From NCBI RefSeq assembly GCF_003334335.1, contig NZ_QOWQ01000003.1: a stretch of DNA of 64,000 bases; one strand, 5' to 3'. The stretch comes from Escherichia coli (GTDB lineage Bacteria; Pseudomonadota; Gammaproteobacteria; Enterobacterales; Enterobacteriaceae). Positions 1 to 14,574 of the stretch are shown piece after piece (position 1 is the stretch's first letter; each line of letters begins with the position of its first letter). The notes beneath the pieces are model-generated. The model ran no database searches. It had not been told where the DNA came from and saw only the letters and a program-made list of their open reading frames with translations. A program made the translations under genes and the position numbers.

Positions 1-235
1 ACGCGAGGCATCGTCTTAACGAGGCACCGAGGCGTCGCATTCTTCAGATGGTTCAACCCTTAAGTTAGCGCTTATGGGGTCAGGTCTCCCCGTTCCGCAA
101 GCTGCCGCGATTTTTCCCGCCACTGCTTCACGGCGATATCATCCAGGTAGGCGGGGGCTTTCGGTGGTCTTGCCATGCTTATTTTTCGTCAGATTATTTT
201 TCAAAAAATTCCCGTGCATAAAAATTTGGGGAGGC

Positions 236-285
236 GTTCGGTGCCCGGCGGGGTCGGGTTTGTCCTGAAAACGCCCCCCACCCCG
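236..285. promoter_or_regulatory. GC-rich imperfect inverted repeat, candidate cos/packaging site
   Basis: GGGGAGGCGT ... ACGCCCCCC arms around GCCCGGCGGGGTCGGGTTTG core, flanked by AT-rich DNA, immediately downstream of the HNH gene. Confidence 0.25.
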
Positions 286-298
286 TCATACAGCCTCA

Positions 299-481
299 TC
301 AGCGATTGCGGAAACATTCCATAACCTCGCGGTCACGGTCGGTTAATCGCTTCGCTGTGATGCGTTCTGCGCGTCCTGACGCTTTATCTTTATGCCCTGT
401 TTCCTGTGTCTTCCATGCGTCACGCTGCCTTATAAGTCCACGGATAAGGCGGTTTTGTTCCCGCTCATTCATCAGCGTCAT
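299..481 (-). CDS. Hypothetical small protein (about 60 aa) overlapping the HNH stop
   Basis: ATG at 481-479 overlaps the last HNH codons; C-terminal LTDRDREVMECF stretch looks HTH-like; no convincing RBS. Confidence 0.25.
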   Translation of the reverse strand: MTLMNEREQNRLIRGLIRQRDAWKTQETGHKDKASGRAERITAKRLTDRDREVMECFRNR

Positions 482-905
482 ACATCCAGTTATTGCGGTT
501 AGCGGCCCGTTCTTCCTCTTCACGAAATCCACCTGCGGCACGCTTGCTTTTTGTTGCCGGATCAAGCCACTTCGTTTTCTGGTTATGACACGCCTGGCAC
601 AATGGCTGATGGTTCCATTCGGGCCAGAAGAGAACATCATCACCGCCATTAATCGGGATAATGTGATCCACCACCACGGCGGGCGTATATATCCCCTTCT
701 CAAGGCATCGCACGCATAACGGGTTTTTACTCAGATACATGGCGCGGTATTTTTCCCACTGTCTGGAGTACCCACGCGCGCGGCGGTGTCCTCGTCTGGC
801 ATCCTCTGCACGCCATGCCGCCCGCCTGTGCTCCTCACACTTGCCGGACTTAACGCGCCTGTTACAGCCTGGTTCTGTACATCGTCTTAATGGTTGCCAC
901 GGCAT
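465..905 (-). CDS. HNH endonuclease, phage packaging-associated
   Basis: 146 aa with Cys-rich N-terminus and DHIIP...H...N...CH...CH HNH-type motif; start overlaps connector stop (ATGA). Confidence 0.85.
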   Translation of the reverse strand: MPWQPLRRCTEPGCNRRVKSGKCEEHRRAAWRAEDARRGHRRARGYSRQWEKYRAMYLSKNPLCVRCLEKGIYTPAVVVDHIIPINGGDDVLFWPEWNHQPLCQACHNQKTKWLDPATKSKRAAGGFREEEERAANRNNWMYDADE

Positions 906-1201
906 CAGTACACCCCCACATCACGGTAAGCCGTCCAGAGCGCGCCAATCGTCATGGGTACGCGCGTTTTTGCGTTATCCGCTACCAGCTGGCGATTCTC
1001 GTACAGGTGAGCGATAAACATCATGCAGCCAATCTTTATGGCTGGCGTGAACTCCAGCCCGTCATCAAAGCGCCTGCCTATATGTATCTGGCACGCCTCA
1101 AGCGATGCGGCAATGTATCCGCTGATTAACTGGTCTTCCTCGTCGCCATCGATGCGGCAATGGAGTTTCACTTCTTCCAGGGTGATAAGTTCTTCTGTCA
1201 T
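905..1201 (-). CDS. Head-tail connector protein, gp6-like
   Basis: 98 aa, N-terminal ITLEEVKLHCRIDGDEEDQLI motif typical of gp6-like connector proteins; translationally coupled to neighbours. Confidence 0.8.
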   Translation of the reverse strand: MTEELITLEEVKLHCRIDGDEEDQLISGYIAASLEACQIHIGRRFDDGLEFTPAIKIGCMMFIAHLYENRQLVADNAKTRVPMTIGALWTAYRDVGVY

Positions 1202-1536
1202 TTTTCCGCGCCCTCACGACAAAGAATTTCAAGGCGTGTCCTGGCGGCATCCGGCAGCGGTTGCCCGATGATATTCAGTACACGCCCCGCCAGCGGCCCC
1301 GTACTGACCTTTATCCGGCTGGTGGCGTTGATGTCCTTCCGGTACCGTATCCAGATCCTTACGGTACCAATCGCCAGCTCTGCACCCGATGAAATGGCCT
1401 CCTTGCTGCTGATCATGTTCACGCTTGCCCAGAGTGTGTGACCGTCCTCCCACGTTTCGAGTATTTCGCCGGTTATATCCCTGGTCTGTTTCAGGGTCTG
1501 AATCGTTACCCTGTCACGCAGTCGCCCTATGTTCAT
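1198..1536 (-). CDS. Head closure / head-tail joining protein
   Basis: About 113 aa from ATG at 1536 overlapping portal stop; RVTIQ ... IRYR pattern of head-tail joining family. Confidence 0.7.
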   Translation of the reverse strand: MNIGRLRDRVTIQTLKQTRDITGEILETWEDGHTLWASVNMISSKEAISSGAELAIGTVRIWIRYRKDINATSRIKVSTGPLAGRVLNIIGQPLPDAARTRLEILCREGAEK

Positions 1537-2744
1537 TCCGGTTTTTCTCCCTCGCTGATTTTTACTTCCTGTTTCCATGCCTGGCTGAACTCATCACCAC
1601 CATCACGCGGGGACAGCCCTTCACGTTCGCGGGCTTCGTTCGGGCACATAACGCCGGATTTGATGCCGCGTTCATAGGTGGCAAAGCGTTCGCCAGGTGT
1701 GGCCCGTAACAGGTCCGCGCTGTCAAACTCCACCTGATACCGGATACCAGGTACAGGCGAGGCCACCAGCAGGGCGTTTTTTATCTGCTGCTCAAAGTTC
1801 GCCAGCCACGGGCGCATTGTCATGGTGAGAAATGCGCGGCTTGCCTCGCTGAAATTGCTGTAGGTGCTGTTGCTGTATTCCTGCAGAAAAATCGGCGAGA
1901 CGTTGAACATTCGGGCGATGTCTTCAATGGTGAAGCGACGGGAGGCCAGCCATTCAGCATCCTGATTACTCATGCCCAGCTGCTGATAGCTCATACCCCC
2001 TTCAAGGATGGGCGTTTTTCCGGCGTTTCTGGCCCCTTTGTAGCGTTCCAGTGCGGCTAATGCCTGTTTGCCCTTCACGCCGTCCAGCCATTCGCCTGAC
2101 GTGATAACCCCTGCCGCCATCATGCCATCACGCATCACGCTCGCGCCGTGGCGTTGTTGGGCCAGCCCAAGCCCCAGCGATTCGCGGCAGATGGTTACAG
2201 GTGAGCGCCCCATAAAACCGTCATCCGTGGAGTAACGAAGGTGGAGAACCTCCCACGGTAAATAGTTGCGGGTGTTTCCGGTGTAGGCGTCAGTGATGCA
2301 GTAGCGCCAGTTGTGTTCGCCTGTCTGCTCCACGTTCACCGACTGCGGCGGGTAAGGATGTAAAGCCACCGGAAAACCATCACGCCCCCACTGAATCACC
2401 GCATAAGCATTACCGTTTAACAGGCAGTGGCGGATCATCATTCGCTTAAACTGGTAGGGAGTCTGCCACGCGTTCGGGCGCTCGTTGAGGATGTGATCGA
2501 CCGGATGAGAATCAAGCCACTCGCGGGCCTCCTTCCCCTTCTCATTGCGTACCAGGTACAGGTAACACGGCATGGTAGCCACCGCCTCAGAGATGACCGT
2601 CACGGCGTTCATGACGGCGGGCAGTGATTCCGCTGTCCCCGATGATACGTACTCACCCGCCCCCGTGTTCGATGTGCCAGCCAGCGCCATAAATTCATCA
2701 AGCGTCATGCTGCGCTGCTCTTTTTTTCTTCTGAAAAGCCACAT
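1533..2744 (-). CDS. Phage portal protein, HK97 family
   Basis: 403 aa with portal-family conserved core; sits between protease and head-closure genes. Confidence 0.9.
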   Translation of the reverse strand: MWLFRRKKEQRSMTLDEFMALAGTSNTGAGEYVSSGTAESLPAVMNAVTVISEAVATMPCYLYLVRNEKGKEAREWLDSHPVDHILNERPNAWQTPYQFKRMMIRHCLLNGNAYAVIQWGRDGFPVALHPYPPQSVNVEQTGEHNWRYCITDAYTGNTRNYLPWEVLHLRYSTDDGFMGRSPVTICRESLGLGLAQQRHGASVMRDGMMAAGVITSGEWLDGVKGKQALAALERYKGARNAGKTPILEGGMSYQQLGMSNQDAEWLASRRFTIEDIARMFNVSPIFLQEYSNSTYSNFSEASRAFLTMTMRPWLANFEQQIKNALLVASPVPGIRYQVEFDSADLLRATPGERFATYERGIKSGVMCPNEAREREGLSPRDGGDEFSQAWKQEVKISEGEKPE

Positions 2745-2745
2745 A

Positions 2746-3303
2746 TCACACCCCCGCTAAATCCACCCACCAGCGGCGATTATCCGCACGCGGCATTTTT
2801 TCGGGGTGCTGCTCATACAGGGAACGGCGGGCCAGCTCCACGCCGGAATCGGGGTAAGCCGGTACCGATGTAACGGTAATTTCGTACAGTTCCGCCACCA
2901 GCACGGTGCGCACGCATGGATCTGTTGTGGTATCCCATACATCCTTACGGGAGCGAAAGCCAAAGCTCATCCCCGAGATGTCCCCACGCTTAACCAGTTC
3001 GATAACGTCGCGCCCTGTACTGGTATCCGGTGGGGTCAGTTCAAAGCGTAACCCTGTTTCGTCCTCTTCCAGTTTCAGCGTGCCGGAACGGGTACGCCCC
3101 AGCAACATGCTGTGGTCATGCTCATACAGGCCGCGAACGTCATTACCCGCCGCAAGCCATTCAGTAAACGCTCCCCGCTGGAATTTTTCGTAAAACTCCC
3201 CCCATAGCAGCTCTGAAAGCTTATCCCAGCGAACAACGTAGCCTGTAAGCGTGTTGCTGGCGCTGGTGGTGATTTCCGATGACCGGATTTCCATACTCTT
3301 CAT
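2746..3303 (-). CDS. Prohead (head maturation) protease, HK97 family
   Basis: About 185 aa; ORF track gives 2746..3318 but ATG at 3303 has the better RBS (GGGTGA); HK97 protease-like sequence. Confidence 0.85.
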   Translation of the reverse strand: MKSMEIRSSEITTSASNTLTGYVVRWDKLSELLWGEFYEKFQRGAFTEWLAAGNDVRGLYEHDHSMLLGRTRSGTLKLEEDETGLRFELTPPDTSTGRDVIELVKRGDISGMSFGFRSRKDVWDTTTDPCVRTVLVAELYEITVTSVPAYPDSGVELARRSLYEQHPEKMPRADNRRWWVDLAGV

Positions 3304-3318
3304 AATTTTTTCACCCAT

Positions 3319-3347
3319 AAAACACTAAAGGGGCTTTTAAGCCCCTT
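3319..3347 (-). terminator. Intercistronic hairpin/attenuator after major capsid gene
   Basis: AAGGGGC-loop-GCCCCTT stem followed by U-rich tract on minus strand between capsid stop and protease start. Confidence 0.5.
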
Positions 3348-3357
3348 CTGTATGCTG

Positions 3358-4515
3358 TTAATCGTCGTCCTGTGGCAGTTCCAGAATCTTGATCGCGTTC
3401 GAATCCACCACGCCACCGCCTAAATATTTCTGCGTGAAAATTTTGATGAAGCCCGGCTCTGTGAGGTTGTCCGGTCTGGTGCGAACACCTGTTTCGTGAT
3501 CAACAATGTAGTAACCGCGTTTGAAGTCACCCAGGGCAATAACGTTATCAGGCATAAACTCCAGATATTCGACCGGAAGGCCCAGCAACGTATCAGGATC
3601 ACCCGCCTGTAAACGGTCACGCCAGATGTAATCACCGTTCGCGTTCTTCACCTTCTGGAGTTTTGCCGCCGTCGTGGAGTTAACCACCCAGACCGCGTTT
3701 TTGCGGTATTTTTTACGTAATGCAAATTTCAGGTCGATCAGCGGGTCCGCAGATGTCCACGCCAGAGATTCGGAAGGTTTAATTACCTGCAACGTACCAA
3801 AATCACGCTCTTTGTCGTTCTTCTCTGCACGGGGTACGGATAAAAAGCCTTTTGCTTTTTTGTCACCGTCGCCCACAACCAGATCGCTTTCTTCGGTTTC
3901 CGTGAAGGTGTCGCCAATCTCGCCCGTCAGCCATGAAAGGATGTCCACATCGGAAAAATCCACGATTTCCTGTGTGGTGCGCGGGTACGCATAGACCGGA
4001 TACAGCTTAATGCTCACCTCGTTAATCTGCGGGGTGCTGGTCTGTTCGCGTGTCTTACCCTCTTCACCGTGGTTAACGGTCGCACCGCCAGCGGAAACAA
4101 GCTGCTTAAACTCGTTGCTGCTGATTTTCTTCACGGTACAGATGCGGCGCATGGTGGATTCATCCGTCAGCATTCGCATGATTTCGGTGTTCAGTTCGGG
4201 GATAACGGTATAACCACCATCAGCGGGAACGCCTGTACTTAATGCGCGGGTTTCACCTGTCAGGATGTAGTTGCGGAGTTCTGCCGGGTCAGTGGTCTGG
4301 CTGCTTTTACCTGGCTTGCTGCGCTCTTCGTCTGCAATGGCTTCAAGGCGGGAAATGTCTTTATCGAGGGATTCAGCTTTAGCGCGTAATTCGTCAAATG
4401 TTGCGCCCTCAGCATCGTTAAGACTGCGGTTTTCTTTTTCCGCGTTCTCCAGCATGTCGCGCATCTGATTTTTAATGGCGGTTTTCTGCTGGCGTAATTC
4501 GATTATTCTCGGCAT
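3358..4515 (-). CDS. Major capsid protein, HK97 fold, with N-terminal coiled-coil delta domain
   Basis: 385 aa; charged coiled-coil N-terminus then HK97-type capsid body; adjacent to prohead protease. Confidence 0.9.
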   Translation of the reverse strand: MPRIIELRQQKTAIKNQMRDMLENAEKENRSLNDAEGATFDELRAKAESLDKDISRLEAIADEERSKPGKSSQTTDPAELRNYILTGETRALSTGVPADGGYTVIPELNTEIMRMLTDESTMRRICTVKKISSNEFKQLVSAGGATVNHGEEGKTREQTSTPQINEVSIKLYPVYAYPRTTQEIVDFSDVDILSWLTGEIGDTFTETEESDLVVGDGDKKAKGFLSVPRAEKNDKERDFGTLQVIKPSESLAWTSADPLIDLKFALRKKYRKNAVWVVNSTTAAKLQKVKNANGDYIWRDRLQAGDPDTLLGLPVEYLEFMPDNVIALGDFKRGYYIVDHETGVRTRPDNLTEPGFIKIFTQKYLGGGVVDSNAIKILELPQDDD

Positions 4516-4522
4516 AAAAAAA

Positions 4523-4552
4523 GTCCTGGGGTTAAGTAAGGAACTCCAGGAC
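4523..4552 (-). promoter_or_regulatory. Hairpin plus U-run immediately 5' of capsid start codon
   Basis: GTCCTGG ... CCAGGAC stem (7 bp, about 16 nt loop) followed by TTTTTTT then ATG; no canonical SD at normal spacing. Confidence 0.35.
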
Positions 4553-4729
4553 GCGGCAAAAACTCAACCGTTTTTCATAAGGAAATCAGCAATCGCACCG
4601 ATCGTTTTCCCGCCTGGTAATGAATATTGGCGAGAACATTAACAGGCGGAAAAGTGGCCCCAGCGTCCTGGCACCACGGGCGAGAATAATCATGATTCAG
4701 TTCGGGTAAAATATGCCGATCCTGTCAGT

Positions 4730-4756
4730 GAACAACGTGGAACAACCGCGAACAAA
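4730..4756. promoter_or_regulatory. Three GAACAAC direct repeats at 10-bp phasing upstream of head operon
   Basis: gAACAACgtg gAACAACcgc gAACAAAtaa on plus strand (GTTGTTC on the transcribed minus strand), about 215 bp upstream of capsid start. Confidence 0.45.
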
Positions 4757-4761
4757 TAATT

Positions 4762-4796
4762 TACAAAAAATGACAAAAAGCCGGATTGCTCCGGCT
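4762..4796 (-). terminator. Rho-independent terminator after small cargo gene
   Basis: GCCGGAgcaaTCCGGC hairpin followed by TTTTTGTCATTTTTTG on minus strand. Confidence 0.7.
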
Positions 4797-5123: not shown

Positions 5124-5149
5124 TGCAAAAAAAGCCGGATTTCTCCGGC
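5124..5149 (-). terminator. Rho-independent terminator ending the early/replication operon
   Basis: GCCGGAgaaaTCCGGC hairpin followed by TTTTTTT on minus strand; near-identical to hairpin at 4780-4795. Confidence 0.7.
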
Positions 5150-5156
5150 TGTGTGA

Positions 5157-5429
5157 TTAGCTGTCCTGGTAATTTCGCCATATTTCATCACCAGCACCAT
5201 CCATACCCATTTCGGCATAAGTGCGATCGACCGCCTTTTTCAGGTCTCCGTAATTATCCGGCGGCTCCGGTGGCCTCTGTGCCTTCCTGGAACATTCCAG
5301 CCGTCGCATCGTAACCTGATGCCGTTCCTTGTCTGTCTCCACCAGCAGCATGACTTCACCCCATCGCGCCGACGCCCTCCGGTAAAAGCCTTTTGCCTCG
5401 AGTTCCTCCGCTATGCGGTCATGTACCAT
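5157..5429 (-). CDS. Hypothetical protein, 90 aa
   Basis: ATG at 5429 with strong RBS (GAGGGGGTGA), 10 nt after SSB stop; no recognisable family. Confidence 0.55.
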   Translation of the reverse strand: MVHDRIAEELEAKGFYRRASARWGEVMLLVETDKERHQVTMRRLECSRKAQRPPEPPDNYGDLKKAVDRTYAEMGMDGAGDEIWRNYQDS

Positions 5430-5439
5430 CGTCACCCCC

Positions 5440-5850
5440 TCAGAACGGAATATCATCACCGTAGGGGTCATCGTCTCCCGCTGGTGGCTGATTACCCTGT
5501 GTGCCTGTGGTTTTGCGTCTGTTCCCGCCAGGACGTGCCGCACGGGCACTGATTACGCTGTCTGCAATAACCTGATACCCCTGTCGTGTTTCCCCGTTCT
5601 GTCCGGTCCACTGGCTTACCTGCATCGTGCCGGATACGCTGGCAACATCGCCTTTTTGATGTTTAGCCAGGAAATCGGCCTGTTTGCCAAATGCGATAAC
5701 CGATAACCATAACGTCGCCTGTCCGTCATGTGCTTGGCTGCATGGCAACGATACCGCCATACGCGCCAGAGTCATCGGTGTGCCCTTGCTGCTCTGTTTT
5801 ACCAGCGGGTCGTCCACCAGGCGCCCGTAAGCTGCAATTTGTGCTGTCAT
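5440..5850 (-). CDS. ssb: Single-stranded DNA-binding protein
   Basis: 136 aa; OB-fold region aligns with E. coli SSB; Gly/Gln-rich linker and acidic C-terminal tip ending DDIPF. Confidence 0.85.
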   Translation of the reverse strand: MTAQIAAYGRLVDDPLVKQSSKGTPMTLARMAVSLPCSQAHDGQATLWLSVIAFGKQADFLAKHQKGDVASVSGTMQVSQWTGQNGETRQGYQVIADSVISARAARPGGNRRKTTGTQGNQPPAGDDDPYGDDIPF

Positions 5851-5859
5851 ATTGCCACC

Positions 5860-6165
5860 TCAGTGAAGCGATCCGGCGTTGTTCTTTTTCATCTCTTCCA
5901 TCATTTTTTCAGTGAGCATTACGCACTGAAAACCCATGTTTTTGATGTCTACGGGTTTCATGCCTTTGTCAGTGGATATCACAGGCAGAATATCCTGATA
6001 CACATCGCGGTCAGGGTAACTAAGCACACAAAGCGCCCATGATGCCACGGGTGAGGATCCTTCGTCTGTTTCAACCCACCAGCCTGGTGTAGCTGCGCTT
6101 ATTTGCTGAATCGTGATCCGTCCGTTGTGCTTGTAAAGTTTTTCACCAAATTTTGGTTCGCTCAT
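5860..6165 (-). CDS. Hypothetical protein, 101 aa
   Basis: Start overlaps upstream gene stop (ATGA); operon context; no recognisable family. Confidence 0.5.
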   Translation of the reverse strand: MSEPKFGEKLYKHNGRITIQQISAATPGWWVETDEGSSPVASWALCVLSYPDRDVYQDILPVISTDKGMKPVDIKNMGFQCVMLTEKMMEEMKKNNAGSLH

Positions 6166-6413: not shown

Positions 6414-6620
6414 TTGCCCACCTCTACCCACTTTTTTCGCCCACTTTTTACGTTTTCCCACTTCGTCCAACGTGGGAAATTTGGGATTTATATCATCTTG
6501 TTTCATAGGTATTTTTTTAGTGCCCACTTTTTGGGATATATACACGTGGGAAAGTGGGTAATTTTGTTAAAATTACGTTAAATCGCCCACCTTTCCCACT
6601 TTTAATGCCCACTTTTTACA
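6414..6620. repeat. Candidate replication origin: iteron array around an AT-rich spacer
   Basis: At least 10 copies of (G/T)CCCAC(T)n / GTGGGAAA in both orientations flanking an AT-rich segment (about 6478-6518), directly 3' of the replication protein gene. Confidence 0.6.
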
Positions 6621-8013
6621 GTGGTCCTACATCATCACCGTCAATGTAGATCACGTCGTCTTTTTCCAGTTTGGCTAACCATCGTTTAAGGTGTTTTGTG
6701 TCATACCCCAGCTTTTTCATATCGTCACGTAACAGCGGGATCGTGCACTTGTCGCCGTGCTGTGTGCGTGAACGTATGCACCCCCATAGCGCGGTATGGT
6801 TTTCCGTCTTGTTGCCTGCCTCCTCGATGCGCTCCAGTTCAACGGGAGGGCGCGGCTTATCCACCACCACCAGCGACGTGATTAACTCCCCGTCAGCGTC
6901 GGTAAAAAGCTCCACCACCCGCAAATCATAGGCAGCCTCTTTGAGTTCCTCCGCGTCCTTCATTTTGGTGCATGAGATAACCAGCGCTTCGCTTCCTGCG
7001 TCCTCCCTGCGTATCCGGTATTCAGCATCCAGCGAAGCACGAAATGCACTGGAACCGCGCGCGCCTTTCGTCTCATCCTTGCCGGAATGGTGAACCACCA
7101 GCACCGTGGCCCCTGTGCGCCGTTTAAGCTCGTCACACCCACGGATAAACGCCCCCATATCACGGGAATCATTTTCATCATTGCCACCAAAGCAACGCGC
7201 CAGAGTATCAAGAATAATCATGCGTACAGGTTTACCCGTTTCCCGCTCCACCTGACGGGCAGCGATAACCAGTTCATCAACATCAAGCGGGACAGCCGGA
7301 AAAACTGGACGGTTTACCAGATACAGATTTTTCACCTGCTCACCGTGCACAACCTCCCAGGCTTTTACACGACGCGGAACGCCGATACCGCCTTCACCAA
7401 CCACATAGAGAACAGCGCCATGCGCCACCCTGCGGCCTCCCCACTGGCGGCCCGTGGAAACGTGACACGCCCACGAACCCGCAAGGAATGATTTATAGGA
7501 ACCGCTTGCCCCGTATATGCTGCATAGCGACGATGCCGGAATAATCCCCTTTACCACGTAATCTAATTGCGTGTCGTATCCGGCAGATCCAACGCTCATC
7601 GGTAGCGTGGTTTTTCGCTGGTGGTGTTCTTCCCCTGGCTTTTTCCCCCGCTCCCGTTCCAGATATTCGCGCCAGTTCTCCCGCTTCTGGCTGTGTATCC
7701 CTTCGGGGTAATAATTCGCATCAGTTACGCCCGCCGCCGCCAGCTTGTGCGCAATGGCATTAATATTTGATGGCCTGATGTGGCCTGCCTTGTACAGCCG
7801 GACACAATAGCGCCCCTCGTCGATGATTCTCAGGTCTGCCAGTTCATCCAGTTGATCATCAGCCAGCACAATGGGAGGCACATTATCGCCAGCCAGTCGC
7901 CCGTCCTGTTCCTGCCACTGTTTCGCATGTGCCCACGCATCACTACCCGCAAAAATGATGACTTCGGTCATCTTGTCGTAAGGCTGTTTTTTTAAGTTCG
8001 GTGCGCTTTTCAT
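6616..8013 (-). CDS. Satellite replication protein, RecA/DnaB-like P-loop ATPase with N-terminal extension
   Basis: 465 aa; Walker A GASGSYKS and ILDTLARCFGG...VHHSGK helicase-like motifs; followed by the iteron array. Confidence 0.85.
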   Translation of the reverse strand: MKSAPNLKKQPYDKMTEVIIFAGSDAWAHAKQWQEQDGRLAGDNVPPIVLADDQLDELADLRIIDEGRYCVRLYKAGHIRPSNINAIAHKLAAAGVTDANYYPEGIHSQKRENWREYLERERGKKPGEEHHQRKTTLPMSVGSAGYDTQLDYVVKGIIPASSLCSIYGASGSYKSFLAGSWACHVSTGRQWGGRRVAHGAVLYVVGEGGIGVPRRVKAWEVVHGEQVKNLYLVNRPVFPAVPLDVDELVIAARQVERETGKPVRMIILDTLARCFGGNDENDSRDMGAFIRGCDELKRRTGATVLVVHHSGKDETKGARGSSAFRASLDAEYRIRREDAGSEALVISCTKMKDAEELKEAAYDLRVVELFTDADGELITSLVVVDKPRPPVELERIEEAGNKTENHTALWGCIRSRTQHGDKCTIPLLRDDMKKLGYDTKHLKRWLAKLEKDDVIYIDGDDVGPL

Positions 8014-8314: not shown

Positions 8315-8548
8315 TTATTCTCCGGTGTGCTGTTCGTTATATCTGTCGTGCAATGTCTCTATTTCTTGTAGTTCCATTATTACAGGCTCAAGAAGCGTTA
8401 TTAATGCCGTGACAATTCTTGATTTTTGTTTGTCGCGTTCATTGTCGCCAAGTGTTTCAAGCCATATGCGCAATATTTCCAGCATGTTTTCACTGTGAGA
8501 AAGTGCAAGAAATACGCGTTCTGTTGTTTCGTGGTAAATATCACGCAT
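8315..8548 (-). CDS. Hypothetical protein, 77 aa
   Basis: ATG at 8548 with GAGGA RBS; operon context. Confidence 0.5.
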   Translation of the reverse strand: MRDIYHETTERVFLALSHSENMLEILRIWLETLGDNERDKQKSRIVTALITLLEPVIMELQEIETLHDRYNEQHTGE

Positions 8549-10292: not shown

Positions 10293-10481
10293 TTAATGAA
10301 CTGCCTTGCAGCTATCCTTCCAGGCCAGAACCTCGGATAAAGACCAGCCAACGGAACGACCGCCAAGTTTACGACGTGATGGGAATTGTCCGGCCTTTTC
10401 CAGGCGGTAGCGACACGTACGGCTAAGGCCGGTTAGTTTTTCGCATTCTTTTTCACGTATAAACCGATCAGTGCTTAACAC
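10293..10481 (-). CDS. alpA: AlpA-family transcriptional regulator/excisionase
   Basis: GTG start at 10481 with strong RBS (AAGGGGGG); ORF track extends to a TTG at 10562; EKLTGLSRTCRYRLEKAGQFP HTH typical of AlpA. Confidence 0.75.
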   Translation of the reverse strand: MLSTDRFIREKECEKLTGLSRTCRYRLEKAGQFPSRRKLGGRSVGWSLSEVLAWKDSCKAVH

Positions 10482-10631
10482 TATTGCCCCCCTTTCGTTT
10501 CTTAAAGAGTCATCAGGTGTCTTATTGTGTCGTATTGTTCCCGCTAGAGTGATGAATGGCAAATATTGAGGATGTATTATTTACAGAAAATGAAACAGTA
10601 AGAATAAAATCTTTTAAATTCATGTTAATAC

Positions 10632-10846: not shown

Positions 10847-12064
10847 TTATTTTCTTCTGGCTACGGGTAGCGTGGTTACGTTTTCATGTGTTCCCGCCAG
10901 TATCCCTAACCGCTCCGTCCACATATCCAGCGCATTGCGTTTAGCATCCAGATAACGGGAATGATTATAAACTCGCTGCATTCCTGGCATCTGGTGGCCT
11001 GTAAGCTGCTCCACGACATGCGGATCAACGCCTAAATCGTTCAGCATGGTTGTAAAGGTGCGCCGGATGTCATGCAGTGACCAGTGAGGATGATTAAGCC
11101 TCCTGTGCGCTAATCTTCCATACTGCGATACGCTGGCCTCCTGTTTCACTTCCCCCAGCAATAAGCCCGTGTGCCTGTTCTGCTCCACCAGCTGCGTGAC
11201 GAACGGCAGGATCGCTTCCGGTATGGGCCGGAATATTGCGACCTTCGTTTTGCTGTGCTCCTTCGGAACGGTCCATAGCATTTCCGTAAAATCCCACTCC
11301 CCGATCTCCGATAACCTCAGTTCTACCGTTCTGGCTCCGAAGACAATCAGGAGGCGGATTAACGCGACGTAGTAAGGGGAGAATATTTTTTTGTCCAGTG
11401 CCTGCAATAATTCGCCAAGTTCTTTGTTACTTAAGACACGTTCGCTTATATCCGGTTTTTTCCCAACGTCCGCCACGTTCAGATCGTCCAGAACGTTGCT
11501 GATTGCATAGCGCCGCCTACGGCAGAACTTAAGCGCCTGTTTGCACGCCTGTAGCACGAATCCGGCAGTAACAGGCGTTCGCTTTGCCACCTGGTCAAAA
11601 CAGGCCAGCCAGTGCCGTAGCTCGCATTTATCCAGCGGCATAGCACCAATCTGCTGTATTACGTGATTATTAAGTCGCCTTTTCAGGGCGATATAATCCA
11701 CGCGGTTTTCCTTTACGTAATACTCAAGCCAGTAGGTGAGCGCATCGCCAACCGTTACGGGCTTTAACGCTTCCTGTACGGTGTAATTCATCTCATGACG
11801 TGGATTTTTCCCCTCAGCCAGCCATGTGCGACACTGTGCGGCTTTTTCCCTGGCTGCTTTCAGGCTCAGATCAGGATAACTTCCCAGCTTAATGCGTTCG
11901 GGTCGTGTCTCCCTTCCCGTTCCGGCCCTGTATGTGAAATACCAGGTCAATTTCCCTGATGTTAAATATTTCACGCTCAGGTTTCCGCCATCACTATAAA
12001 ACGTGTTTTTCTCCGCTGGCTTACCATGAAGTTTCCTTAGCAAGGTATCGCTCAGTTTGTTCAT
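10847..12064 (-). CDS. int: Tyrosine integrase, P4-like
   Basis: About 405 aa from ATG at 12064 (ORF track starts at a GTG at 12076); P4-type N-terminal arm-binding region and C-terminal catalytic region with HDIRRTF and trailing Tyr; next to insertion junction. Confidence 0.9.
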   Translation of the reverse strand: MNKLSDTLLRKLHGKPAEKNTFYSDGGNLSVKYLTSGKLTWYFTYRAGTGRETRPERIKLGSYPDLSLKAAREKAAQCRTWLAEGKNPRHEMNYTVQEALKPVTVGDALTYWLEYYVKENRVDYIALKRRLNNHVIQQIGAMPLDKCELRHWLACFDQVAKRTPVTAGFVLQACKQALKFCRRRRYAISNVLDDLNVADVGKKPDISERVLSNKELGELLQALDKKIFSPYYVALIRLLIVFGARTVELRLSEIGEWDFTEMLWTVPKEHSKTKVAIFRPIPEAILPFVTQLVEQNRHTGLLLGEVKQEASVSQYGRLAHRRLNHPHWSLHDIRRTFTTMLNDLGVDPHVVEQLTGHQMPGMQRVYNHSRYLDAKRNALDMWTERLGILAGTHENVTTLPVARRK

Positions 12065-12100
12065 TGCTCTGCTCACGTTTTACCCCCTCTTTACGAAAAA

Positions 12101-12252: not shown

Positions 12253-13158
12253 GCTGTTATTCTTAACCCGCTGGTGCAACACATGGTCCGCTGGCGTGTG
12301 CCGCGTGTACTGGCGGTGTCGATTTTGATGACCATCATCGTGATGGCGATGGTGTTGCTATTAGCTTATCTGGGTTCCGCGCTCAACGAGTTGACGCGGA
12401 CGTTACCGCAATATCGCAACTCTATTATGACGCCGCTGCAAGCGCTTGAAGCGTTGTTGCAACGCGTAGGGATTGACGTCTCAGTTGACCAGCTGGCGCA
12501 TTATATTGATCCGAACGCGGCGATGACGTTGCTCACCAACTTATTGACGCAGTTATCTAATGCCATGTCATCAATATTTTTATTGCTGCTGACGGTGCTG
12601 TTTATGCTGCTCGAAGTGCCACAATTGCCCGGAAAATTTCAGCAAATGATGGCGCGTCCGGTTGAAGGGATGGCGGCGATTCAACGTGCGATTGACAGTG
12701 TTTCTCATTATCTGGTGCTGAAAACAGCCATCAGCATCATCACCGGCCTGGTCGCCTGGGCGATGCTCGCCGCACTCGATGTTCGCTTCGCTTTTGTCTG
12801 GGGATTGCTGGCCTTTGCGCTTAATTACATCCCGAATATTGGTTCAGTCCTCGCGGCAATCCCCCCTATCGCTCAGGTACTGGTGTTTAATGGCTTCTAC
12901 GAAGCGTTGCTGGTGCTGGCGGGATATCTGCTGATTAATCTGGTCTTCGGCAATATTCTGGAGCCGCGTATCATGGGGCGTGGGCTGGGGCTTTCCACAT
13001 TGGTGGTATTTTTGTCGTTGATTTTTTGGGGATGGTTGTTAGGACCGGTGGGTATGCTGCTTTCCGTGCCGTTGACAATTATTGTCAAAATTGCGCTTGA
13101 ACAAACAGCGGGAGGTCAAAGCATCGCCGTTCTGTTAAGCGATCTCAATAAAGAGTGA
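12253..13158 (+). pseudogene. tqsA: tqsA (AI-2 exporter) 3' fragment, 5' end displaced by the satellite
   Basis: Protein matches TqsA from about residue 50 onward; in-frame TAA immediately upstream at the junction; only GTG/ATG internal starts remain. Confidence 0.8.
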
Positions 13159-13179
13159 CGGCCTCAGCAGAGGCCGTCA
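13157..13179. terminator. Bidirectional hairpin between tqsA and pntB
   Basis: GACGGCCTCagcagAGGCCGTC. Confidence 0.45.
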
Positions 13180-13182
13180 GGG

Positions 13183-14574
<1,392 letters not shown>

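Follow-up and report, generated by a model that had tools for sequence, protein, structure and literature searches.

We analysed a 64,000-nt stretch of Escherichia coli DNA (NCBI RefSeq assembly GCF_003334335.1, contig NZ_QOWQ01000003.1), hereafter the window. Positions 1–12.1 kb of the window, on the minus strand, are a capsid-forming phage-inducible chromosomal island (cf-PICI) of the EcCIEDL933 type, and 155 complete E. coli genomes carry islands with 94–97% identity to the first 12 kb; a match of 96.9% is to islands with int, AlpA, a RepA-type helicase, SSB, the head genes, HNH, TerS and TerL and without tail or lysis genes. Satellites of this family build capsids from their own genes and depend on helper phages for tails only; how the capsid operon is switched and dosed is not addressed in the cf-PICI preprints. 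The operon of the window begins with the major capsid gene, and our subject is the 290-nt spacer upstream of it, which folds beyond its shuffled counterparts (z = -5.1) and remains conserved among E. coli copies that differ in the upstream gene. The original prediction had pointed to a 7-bp hairpin and a U7 run directly before the capsid AUG. Both are present as described, but the hairpin (H3′ below) is only the last part of a leader of about 165 nt, and the key alternative pairing of that leader had been missed. The features of the spacer are listed below from upstream to downstream; d is a terminator discriminant after d'Aubenton-Carafa 1990, its values being approximate throughout.

4779..4796, minus strand: intrinsic terminator of the upstream accessory open reading frame (ORF), d = +20, insulating the leader.
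4730..4766, minus strand: TTGTAAATTAT motif and three TTGTTC direct repeats with a 10-bp period, a candidate upstream activator site; TGTAAA is invariant and phased repeats are found in all leaders.
4705..4710, minus strand: predicted -35 hexamer TTTACC; TTT in 122–125 of 125 leaders (-33..-31 from H1), C at the fifth position in 105 of 125.
4683..4688, minus strand: predicted -10 hexamer TATTCT; T, A and the final T, at -11, -10 and -6 relative to H1, invariant in 125 of 125 leaders.
4654..4677, minus strand: hairpin H1 (GUGGUGCCAGGACGCUGGGGCCAC), the predicted 5′ end of the transcript; its segment CCAGGACGC (4671..4663) is a candidate antiterminator or anti-sequestor.
4606..4653, minus strand: hairpin H2 (UUUUCCGCCUG.../...CAGGCGGGAAAA), covarying.
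4558..4605, minus strand: linker with a small hairpin, lineage-specific; a pyrimidine-rich linker takes its place in other lineages.
4546..4554, minus strand: GCGUCCUGG, 5′ arm of H3′ and alternative partner of H1, invariant in 26 variants.
4523..4552, minus strand: leader hairpin H3′, whose 3′ arm CCAGGAC holds the Shine-Dalgarno (SD) sequence AGGA (4527..4524).
4516..4522, minus strand: U7 tract between H3′ and the AUG; T7 or T8 in all 26 lineage variants.
3358..4515, minus strand: major capsid protein of the HK97 fold family, 385 aa (phrog_10, E 4.6e-88).

Relatives were gathered by capsid protein, by exact leader motifs in IMG/VR and by a capsid profile, giving 125 distinct leaders. The capsid-protein scan of genome contigs returned three close relatives only, and exact leader motifs, searched in IMG/VR, supplied most of the comparative data; the leader variation that we observe is biased for this reason. 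All 125 leaders share one layout: TTGTAAATTAT with phased repeats, a σ70-like promoter (TTTAC-N16-TATnTT), H1, H2 and H3, the last ending 5–8 nt before the AUG. In every leader, 16 nt separate the two promoter hexamers, and H1 begins with a purine (121 G, 4 A) 6 nt downstream of the -10 hexamer. The transcript is predicted to start at the G at 4677, the first base of H1, which would give a 5′ untranslated region (UTR) of about 165 nt. Compared with the IMG/VR copies, the leader of the window matches one exactly and differs from the others by a few substitutions; it is nearly identical to the O157 copy.

The leader is conserved as a structure. The basal pairs of H2 show compensatory changes in nine of nine positions (53 leaders), indicating that the sequence is free to vary while the pairing is kept. 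Over the whole structure, 92.6% of the cells are paired, versus 36–48% with slid partners, and 16 pairs show double changes, a value that 0 of 500 shuffles reach. In H2, G-U pairs outnumber A-C combinations by 20 to 4, indicating that the folded strand is the sense-strand RNA. This asymmetry also bears on the idea that the intergenic block acts as DNA, as a cos or pac site, a replication origin or paired operators. Phased direct and inverted repeats do lie in the block, and the satellite must carry cos and an origin somewhere. However, the G-U excess is not expected of a double-stranded DNA site, the stems vary freely as long as they pair, and the block always abuts the capsid AUG. In addition, the ends of the virion-derived record LR881103 lie in a GC-rich block next to terS, not in the leader, and a cos function of the leader was set aside on that ground. 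A DNA site is therefore very improbable.

When the lineage of the window was left out of a covariance model of H1 and H2, the model still found 4679..4592 at full length with 18 bits (E 1e-4; next best, 3 bits); this match was obtained with filters off over 700 nt, and its E over the full window would be about 0.01. With default filters, a search of the whole window found nothing. In Rfam, the window has no match at gathering score, and the leaders of the window and of the divergent E. coli locus L014 gave chance-level matches only (E > 2). When both leader types were compared by BLAST with 50,697 phage records, the matches were the cf-PICI-like vB_KppS-Ant, S.Kent 1-2-1 and P12620-1, all others being at chance level; judged by these matches, true phages among the records searched are without the leader. 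No promoter, terminator or leader of the packaging operon is mentioned in the cf-PICI preprints (10.1101/2022.09.08.507074; 10.1101/2025.02.11.637232), and a literature search for a small RNA of enterohaemorrhagic E. coli at the SpLE2 locus and for work on PICI leaders or antitermination gave nothing relevant. The conserved leader RNA of the cf-PICI capsid operon, with its predicted ability to switch, has apparently not been described before, and the hairpin before the AUG is the tip of it.

The RNA-strand sequence at the capsid start reads GC-GUCCUGG-A-GUU-CCUUACUU-AAC-C-CCAGGAC-UUUUUUU-AUG. H3′ thus consists of the 7-bp stem GUCCUGG/CCAGGAC, an A.C mismatch, 3 bp and an 8-nt loop, with a stability of about -12.7 to -15 kcal/mol. 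Against shuffles, the stability of H3′ alone is unexceptional (z = -1.9); we take H3′ as real because it is conserved, not because of its folding energy. Across 26 variants of the lineage of the window, its 5′ arm is invariant, and its 3′ arm occurs in six variant forms, about half of which keep the pairing (A.C to A-U, G-C to G.U). The modest z score, together with a count of simple terminator-like patterns in the region (14, versus 11.2 expected from shuffles), would suit a functionless chance feature of one lineage. We find this hardly credible: the invariance of the 5′ arm and of the T7 or T8 run, the pair-preserving share of the 3′-arm forms, a perfect 9-nt match to H1 and the homologous hairpin in all other lineages all speak against it.

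H3′ has a d of +14 to +20, near those of two accessory-gene terminators (+20 and +25). With the U7 tract it has the structure of an intrinsic (Rho-independent) terminator, and release of the transcript at U7 is predicted. The U-run follows H3 only in the lineage of the window (the EDL933 lineage); H3 of the other lineages has no U-run and a d of -80.

The 3′ arm of H3′ would also bury the ribosome-binding site. The original prediction saw no SD at normal spacing, but there is one: AGGA (4527..4524) lies 8 nt upstream of the AUG, within the usual range. Apart from this one wrong detail, the prediction was a mostly correct description of a known satellite. Of the clearly assigned starts of the operon, that of the capsid gene has the weakest SD (-4.0 kcal/mol, versus -6 to -10 elsewhere); the probable protease start at 3303 is about as weak (-3.7 kcal/mol). 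Most cf-PICI lineages have no canonical SD in their capsid leaders. Several observations identify the AUG at 4515 as the genuine start of the capsid gene: capsid N-termini align from residue 1 across lineages (MPRIIELRQQK / MKKLLELRQQK), the sequence upstream of the AUG carries 1–2 nt indels, and the main lineage has an in-frame stop there and no alternative start.

The 5′ arm of H3′ has a second possible partner. In the window, CCAGGACGC of H1 (4671..4663) is perfectly complementary over 9 nt to GCGUCCUGG (4554..4546). The heptamer CCAGGAC occurs twice, in H1 and as the 3′ arm of H3′, so that the 5′ arm of H3′ can pair with either. Complementarity of 7–8 nt between H1 and H3 is found at the homologous position in other lineages: in the main lineage, AGACGUGA of H1 is complementary to UCACGUCU in the H3 5′ arm, and in a third lineage GACGGGA of H1 matches UCCCGUC. 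Aligning the three lineages in register shows an invariant GACG/CGUC core and a flanking pair that occurs as U-A, G-C or C-G and is unpaired in none of 22 distinct rows. The covarying H1 base also changes with its partner (A, C or G) inside H1, which is the pattern expected of a strand with two alternative partners. All ten of the ten leaders retrieved by a variant H3 sequence alone carry the matching H1 variant, while differing among themselves in repeats and in H2. When the long-range helix is forced, the fold lies 6.0, 4.0 and 1.2 kcal/mol above the minimum-energy fold in the three lineages and leaves the SD, the U-run and the AUG unpaired. The leader thus appears to hold two mutually exclusive, evolutionarily conserved pairings, as expected of a switch, in three lineages only.

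These data bear on two explanations that involve no RNA switching of this kind. In the first, the hairpin and U7 are a plain intrinsic terminator that yields a short leader RNA or insulates the operon, and expression comes from leaky read-through or from a protein antiterminator acting at the promoter. The terminator-grade score of H3′ and the fact that the off state is the minimum-energy fold agree with this explanation, as does the arrangement of a promoter and then a terminator before the first gene, which matches the Pseudomonas AlpA and lambda Q systems (PMC7969949; PMC9371919). However, it leaves unexplained both the covarying H1:H3 complementarity in three lineages and the homologous hairpin without a U-run in most lineages. 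AlpA of the PICI is a PF05930 protein rather than 21Q-like, without a PDB sequence match to Pseudomonas AlpA, and no Q-like gene was seen. We consider a plain terminator unlikely.

The second explanation is a constitutive leader, in which H1 guards against 5′-end-dependent decay, H3 is a spacer and the U-run is an enhancer bound by ribosomal protein S1 that offsets the weak SD. Hairpins at 5′ ends and U-rich enhancers are established means of raising expression, the predicted start falls on the first base of H1, the capsid gene needs the highest output, and most lineages do without a canonical SD. A stabiliser, however, needs neither an invariant GACG loop complementary to the invariant CGUC of the ribosome-binding hairpin nor a three-way covariation, and a terminator-grade hairpin in a leader lowers expression. 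We give this explanation, too, a low likelihood. Ranked by decreasing likelihood, the rivals are a plain terminator with a protein factor, a constitutive stabiliser or enhancer, a DNA site and chance. The first two stay serious because the switch is drawn from three lineages and from sequence.

The reading that we prefer, with a probability of about one half as a whole explanation, is that the leader is a combined attenuator and SD-sequestering switch on the capsid operon. The operon would be transcribed from its own weak σ70 promoter (-35 at 4710..4705, -10 at 4688..4683), and the UTR would present H1, H2 and then H3′. By default, H1 and H3′ would form, and H3′ with U7 would both act as an intrinsic terminator and bury AGGA. 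Few transcripts would then reach the capsid gene, and read-through RNA would be poorly translated. Alternatively, CCAGGACGC of an opened H1 would pair with GCGUCCUGG, H3′ would be blocked, the AGGA-U7-AUG segment would be single-stranded and the operon would be on. In lineages without a U-run, the same device would act on translation only. The balance could be tipped by a factor of the PICI or of the helper, by a chaperone, by RNA processing or by the choice of start site. Downstream, a weak terminator or stabiliser after the capsid gene, together with packed and overlapping genes, would keep capsid output above that of protease, portal and connectors. A bolder proposal, which we offer tentatively and regard as somewhat doubtful, is that the leader belongs to an unrecognised class of cis-acting RNA switch, in which H1 is a reserve anti-sequestor or antiterminator that a satellite or helper signal frees to license capsid production.

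Several points weigh against the switch. The start site, the termination and the switch itself are all inferred from sequence. The H1:H3 covariation comes from only three lineages and about two independent events, and retrieval by exact motifs biases the view. In each of the three lineages, the fold of lowest energy corresponds to the off state. Most lineages lack the U-run, so that attenuation, if real, would be special to the EDL933 lineage, and what the lineages share would be control of translation. The predicted -10 region (4681-4691) and capsid codons 2–5 (4501-4511) are perfectly complementary over 11 nt; this hints at a part for RNA that starts further upstream and lies outside the model. 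No signal that would select between the leader structures was identified, and a leader peptide was rejected as one. Finally, terS of this copy is interrupted by IS421, and the operon may be a relic in this genome.

Attenuators and SD-sequestering leaders, such as those of trp, pyrBI and bgl (RAT), the alternative mRNA structures of lambda cIII and the rpoS leader, have a segment with two possible partners. One pairing forms a terminator, hides the ribosome site or does both; the other pairing prevents this, and the upstream partner is itself held in a hairpin. The cf-PICI leader differs from these in that it has no conserved leader peptide and no Rfam match and that most lineages have the translational half only. 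Leader-peptide attenuation was rejected, since about 18% of leaders lack the upstream ATG and since the upstream ORF varies in length (10, 17 or 35 codons in the three lineages) and has no SD.

If the switch is real, the leader would add a phage-satellite example to the few leaders that combine transcription attenuation with sequestration of the ribosome site, and the satellite would time and dose its own capsids independently of the late regulators of its helper. A conserved promoter followed by a covariation-supported RNA before the capsid gene provides a testable handle, with defined bases, predicted transcript ends and lineages with and without the U-run.

The satellite shares with the lambda Q system (PR'-tR') and the Pseudomonas aeruginosa AlpA system (PalpB-tB) a terminator-like hairpin of the intrinsic type between a promoter and the first late or lysis-type gene (PMC7969949; PMC9371919). 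PICI-encoded AlpA is essential for induction according to the published cf-PICI description. However, PICI AlpA is a PF05930 protein of about 60–89 aa that matches PDB 8c3t ('AlpA family phage regulatory protein') and not the Pseudomonas AlpA chains solved by cryo-electron microscopy; Pseudomonas AlpA has about 150 aa, with residues numbered beyond 140, and a 21Q-like fold (PMC9371919). Unlike the Q and Pseudomonas AlpA systems, the satellite leader has neither a binding element between -35 and -10 nor an identifiable -10-like pause element. Homology to Pseudomonas-type AlpA antitermination was therefore rejected, the proteins belonging to different families and the PICI protein lacking a Q or 21Q fold; the likeness is an architectural analogy only.

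Upstream of the promoter, the TTGT-N6-TTGT-N6-TTGT repeats that follow TTGTAAATTAT have a geometry like that of lambda CII-type TTGC-N6-TTGC sites. Other leaders carry TTACCC and further repeat types, phased at 10–11 bp. The association of repeat type with AlpA clade in 73 loci is visible but imperfect, and is compatible with linkage. TTGTAAATTAT itself is a less likely operon promoter, since it has no conserved -35 and since a strong terminator (d = +29) stands between the motif and H1 in many lineages; with one occurrence in the window, the motif taken by itself is no more frequent than expected by chance. In these leaders (type B; L003, L002, L014 and others), the strong terminator-like hairpin, for example CCCCUGUCUCUGACGGGGG with a U-run (d = +29), lies between the repeats and the predicted -10, and its U-tract doubles as the -35 region.

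The genes of the operon follow the capsid gene in the order protease, portal, head closure Hc1, adaptor Ad1, HNH, small ORF and terS (ATG at 176). Families were assigned to the ORFs of the window by PHROG profiles, which place capsid, protease and portal in the HK97-type families PHROG 10, 80 and 12. The genes downstream of the capsid gene are:

2746..3303 (longest ORF from 3318), minus strand: HK97-family prohead (head maturation) protease (phrog_80, E 7.6e-67), named 'HK97 family phage prohead protease' in RefSeq.
1533..2744, minus strand: portal (phrog_12, E 1.1e-116).
1198..1536 (or from 1578), minus strand: head closure Hc1 (phrog_25, E 1.3e-34), with the RefSeq start used in L001.
905..1201, minus strand: head-tail adaptor Ad1, the connector (phrog_40, E 4.7e-36).
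465..905, minus strand: HNH endonuclease (phrog_144, E 8.6e-45).
299..481, minus strand: small ORF, 60 aa, positional homologue of EcCIEDL933 gene 1792 according to the L001 annotation.

The protease start is probably at 3303, where a GGUGA SD lies 7 nt upstream; RefSeq relatives use the longest-ORF ATG at 3318, and the natural variant L153 has ACA in place of this first ATG. The Hc1 start at 1536 overlaps the portal stop as ATGA and has the SD GAGGGAG (-8.5 kcal/mol). An EcCIEDL933 mutant of gene 1792 transfers poorly (10.1101/2022.09.08.507074).

The families bear out the transcription order given by the original prediction, with the capsid gene first and HNH after the connector, and its statement that HK97-like phages run portal, protease, capsid holds for both phages compared. 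HK97 (NC_002167) is arranged as TerS, TerL, portal, protease, capsid, Ad1, Hc1, and Pseudomonas phage VW-6S, the closest true phage by capsid, has an HK97-like order. HK97 and the satellite have homologous capsid, protease, portal, Ad1, Hc1, HNH and terminase families, but the window does not follow the TerS-TerL-portal-protease-capsid-adaptor-closure order: the triplet capsid-protease-portal and the pair Hc1-Ad1 each run in reverse, with the terminase genes at the end. In HK97, moreover, the capsid gene directly follows the protease gene with no leader between them. The satellite order is shared by the divergent E. coli cf-PICIs L013 and L014, by the virion-derived Klebsiella record vB_KppS-Ant and by the Pasteurella 'phage' Pmp8. 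Gene order is thus a real lineage signature, as had been suggested, yet one already published. EcCIEDL933 and other proteobacterial cf-PICIs agree with the satellite of the window, as far as the IS421 insertion in terS, in the genes that they carry and in their arrangement (int, alpA, rep, accessory genes, capsid, protease, portal, connectors, HNH, gene 1792, TerS, TerL) (10.1101/2022.09.08.507074; 10.1101/2025.02.11.637232). The defining cf-PICI paper states that PICI and helper packaging modules 'have different genetic organisations' and reports that operon layouts vary among Firmicutes cf-PICIs (10.1101/2022.09.08.507074). The capsid-first order is the normal, published layout of the family and is not new.

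Cf-PICIs of Pasteurellaceae (L174, L178, L182 and others; L170) are capsid-first, too. Their capsid gene either has a short leader (about 60 nt) that combines a similar promoter with a good SD, GAGGA, or is directly preceded by an extra ORF. Only Enterobacterales seem to have the long H1-H2-H3 leader.

The attenuator-like hairpin that the original prediction placed after the capsid gene is present, but it is not distinctive, a 'putative terminator' hairpin being annotated directly after the major capsid gene of HK97, at the same position.

3317..3348, minus strand: post-capsid hairpin GAAGGGGCUUAAAAGCCCCUUU (stem-loop 3348..3327) with an interrupted U-tract, a candidate weak or partial terminator or 3′ stabiliser.

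Except for a few frameshifted or truncated copies, the 75 distinct capsid-protease spacers of relatives hold a GC-rich stem, a tetraloop and a U-rich tail, with stem sequences that differ among them (GGGGC/GCCCC, GGAGGC/GCCUCC, GCGUUCCUG/CAGGAGCGC and others). Their discriminants are negative to borderline, which suggests a weak terminator or a 3′ stabiliser. Further downstream, the genes are tightly packed, with a 1-nt gap between protease and portal, ATGA overlaps between portal and closure and between closure and adaptor, and a 1-nt overlap between adaptor and HNH. The suggested distinct logic of capsid dosage is plausible and gains support from the promoter-proximal capsid gene, the conserved leader and the conserved hairpin before packed downstream genes. 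A promoter-proximal capsid gene followed by a leaky stop would give more capsid than portal.

The remaining genes of the island lie upstream of the capsid operon:

12076..10847, minus strand: tyrosine integrase, upstream of the accessory genes.
10562..10293, minus strand: AlpA-family regulator (PF05930, E 1.9e-16).
8013..6616, minus strand: RepA-type helicase/primase (phrog_2850/906).
Upstream of the capsid operon, minus strand: SSB, PerC-family regulator and small ORFs (PHROG profiles).

Up to the insertion sequence (IS), the satellite is about 12 kb long, within the 10–15 kb of PICIs. It has the PICI layout of integrase, AlpA and primase/helicase, and the relative L001 is arranged alike. Of its own packaging genes, the window holds those from capsid to HNH and the first ~33 codons of terS; the remainder of terS, and terL, would lie past the IS421 insertion and the edge of the window. 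Intact relatives carry full TerS and TerL. No tail or lysis genes are annotated in the 12.5-kb homologous island of L001. The O157:H7 island, which has about 95% nucleotide identity to the satellite of the window and lies between phoQ and roxA, carries int, a helix-turn-helix regulator, an icd-like gene, RepA, SSB, PerC, capsid, protease, portal, closure, connector, HNH, a small ORF, P27-family TerS and TerL. EcCIEDL933 is the only element with experimental helper induction, small capsids and use of helper tails (10.1101/2022.09.08.507074). The capsid protein of the window is 65–69% identical to homologues of Citrobacter, Erwinia and Gilliamella.

The copy in the window differs from O157:H7 EcCIEDL933 in its attachment site (AI-2E transporter/pntB instead of phoQ/roxA) and in its interrupted terS. 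Its integrase abuts an AI-2E family transporter ORF without the first ~50 codons, followed by pntB (12274-14571). At the other end, similarity to intact cf-PICIs starts at position 76, and the following features are found:

177..298, minus strand: GC-rich conserved intergenic block between the gene-1792-like ORF and terS, the probable cos region; the ends of LR881103 lie in the homologous block.
76..176, minus strand: first ~33 codons of P27-family terS (ATG 176..174; MARPP...), cut by IS421; maps to the TerS of L001, with in-frame stops below 81.
1..75, strand not assigned: end of an IS4-like IS421 element, found at 8,423 places in E. coli genomes and annotated in L373 as 'IS4-like element IS421 family transposase'.

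LR881103 (vB_KppS-Ant), derived from virions, both begins and ends inside the block homologous to 177-298. IS421 sits about 100 nt into terS, and this cf-PICI copy is probably packaging-defective. Capsid through HNH and the leader are intact.

Three further observations concern the surroundings of the leader. The H2 apical loop (4628-4636) and the start-codon region (4506-4514) are complementary at eight of nine positions; like the 11-nt complement described above, this match is specific to the lineage of the window, and the two might silence read-through transcripts from upstream. In L013, a gene for a ProQ/FinO-family RNA chaperone (5320-5862) lies close upstream of the capsid leader, with one small ORF between, which is of note in view of the RNA-RNA exchange proposed here. 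The terminators at 4779-4796 and 5133-5150, which follow the PerC-family regulator and the phrog_1957 ORF, are nearly identical (AGCCGGAG[A/C]AATCCGGCT with a T-run), suggesting that the accessory genes are cassette-like modules.

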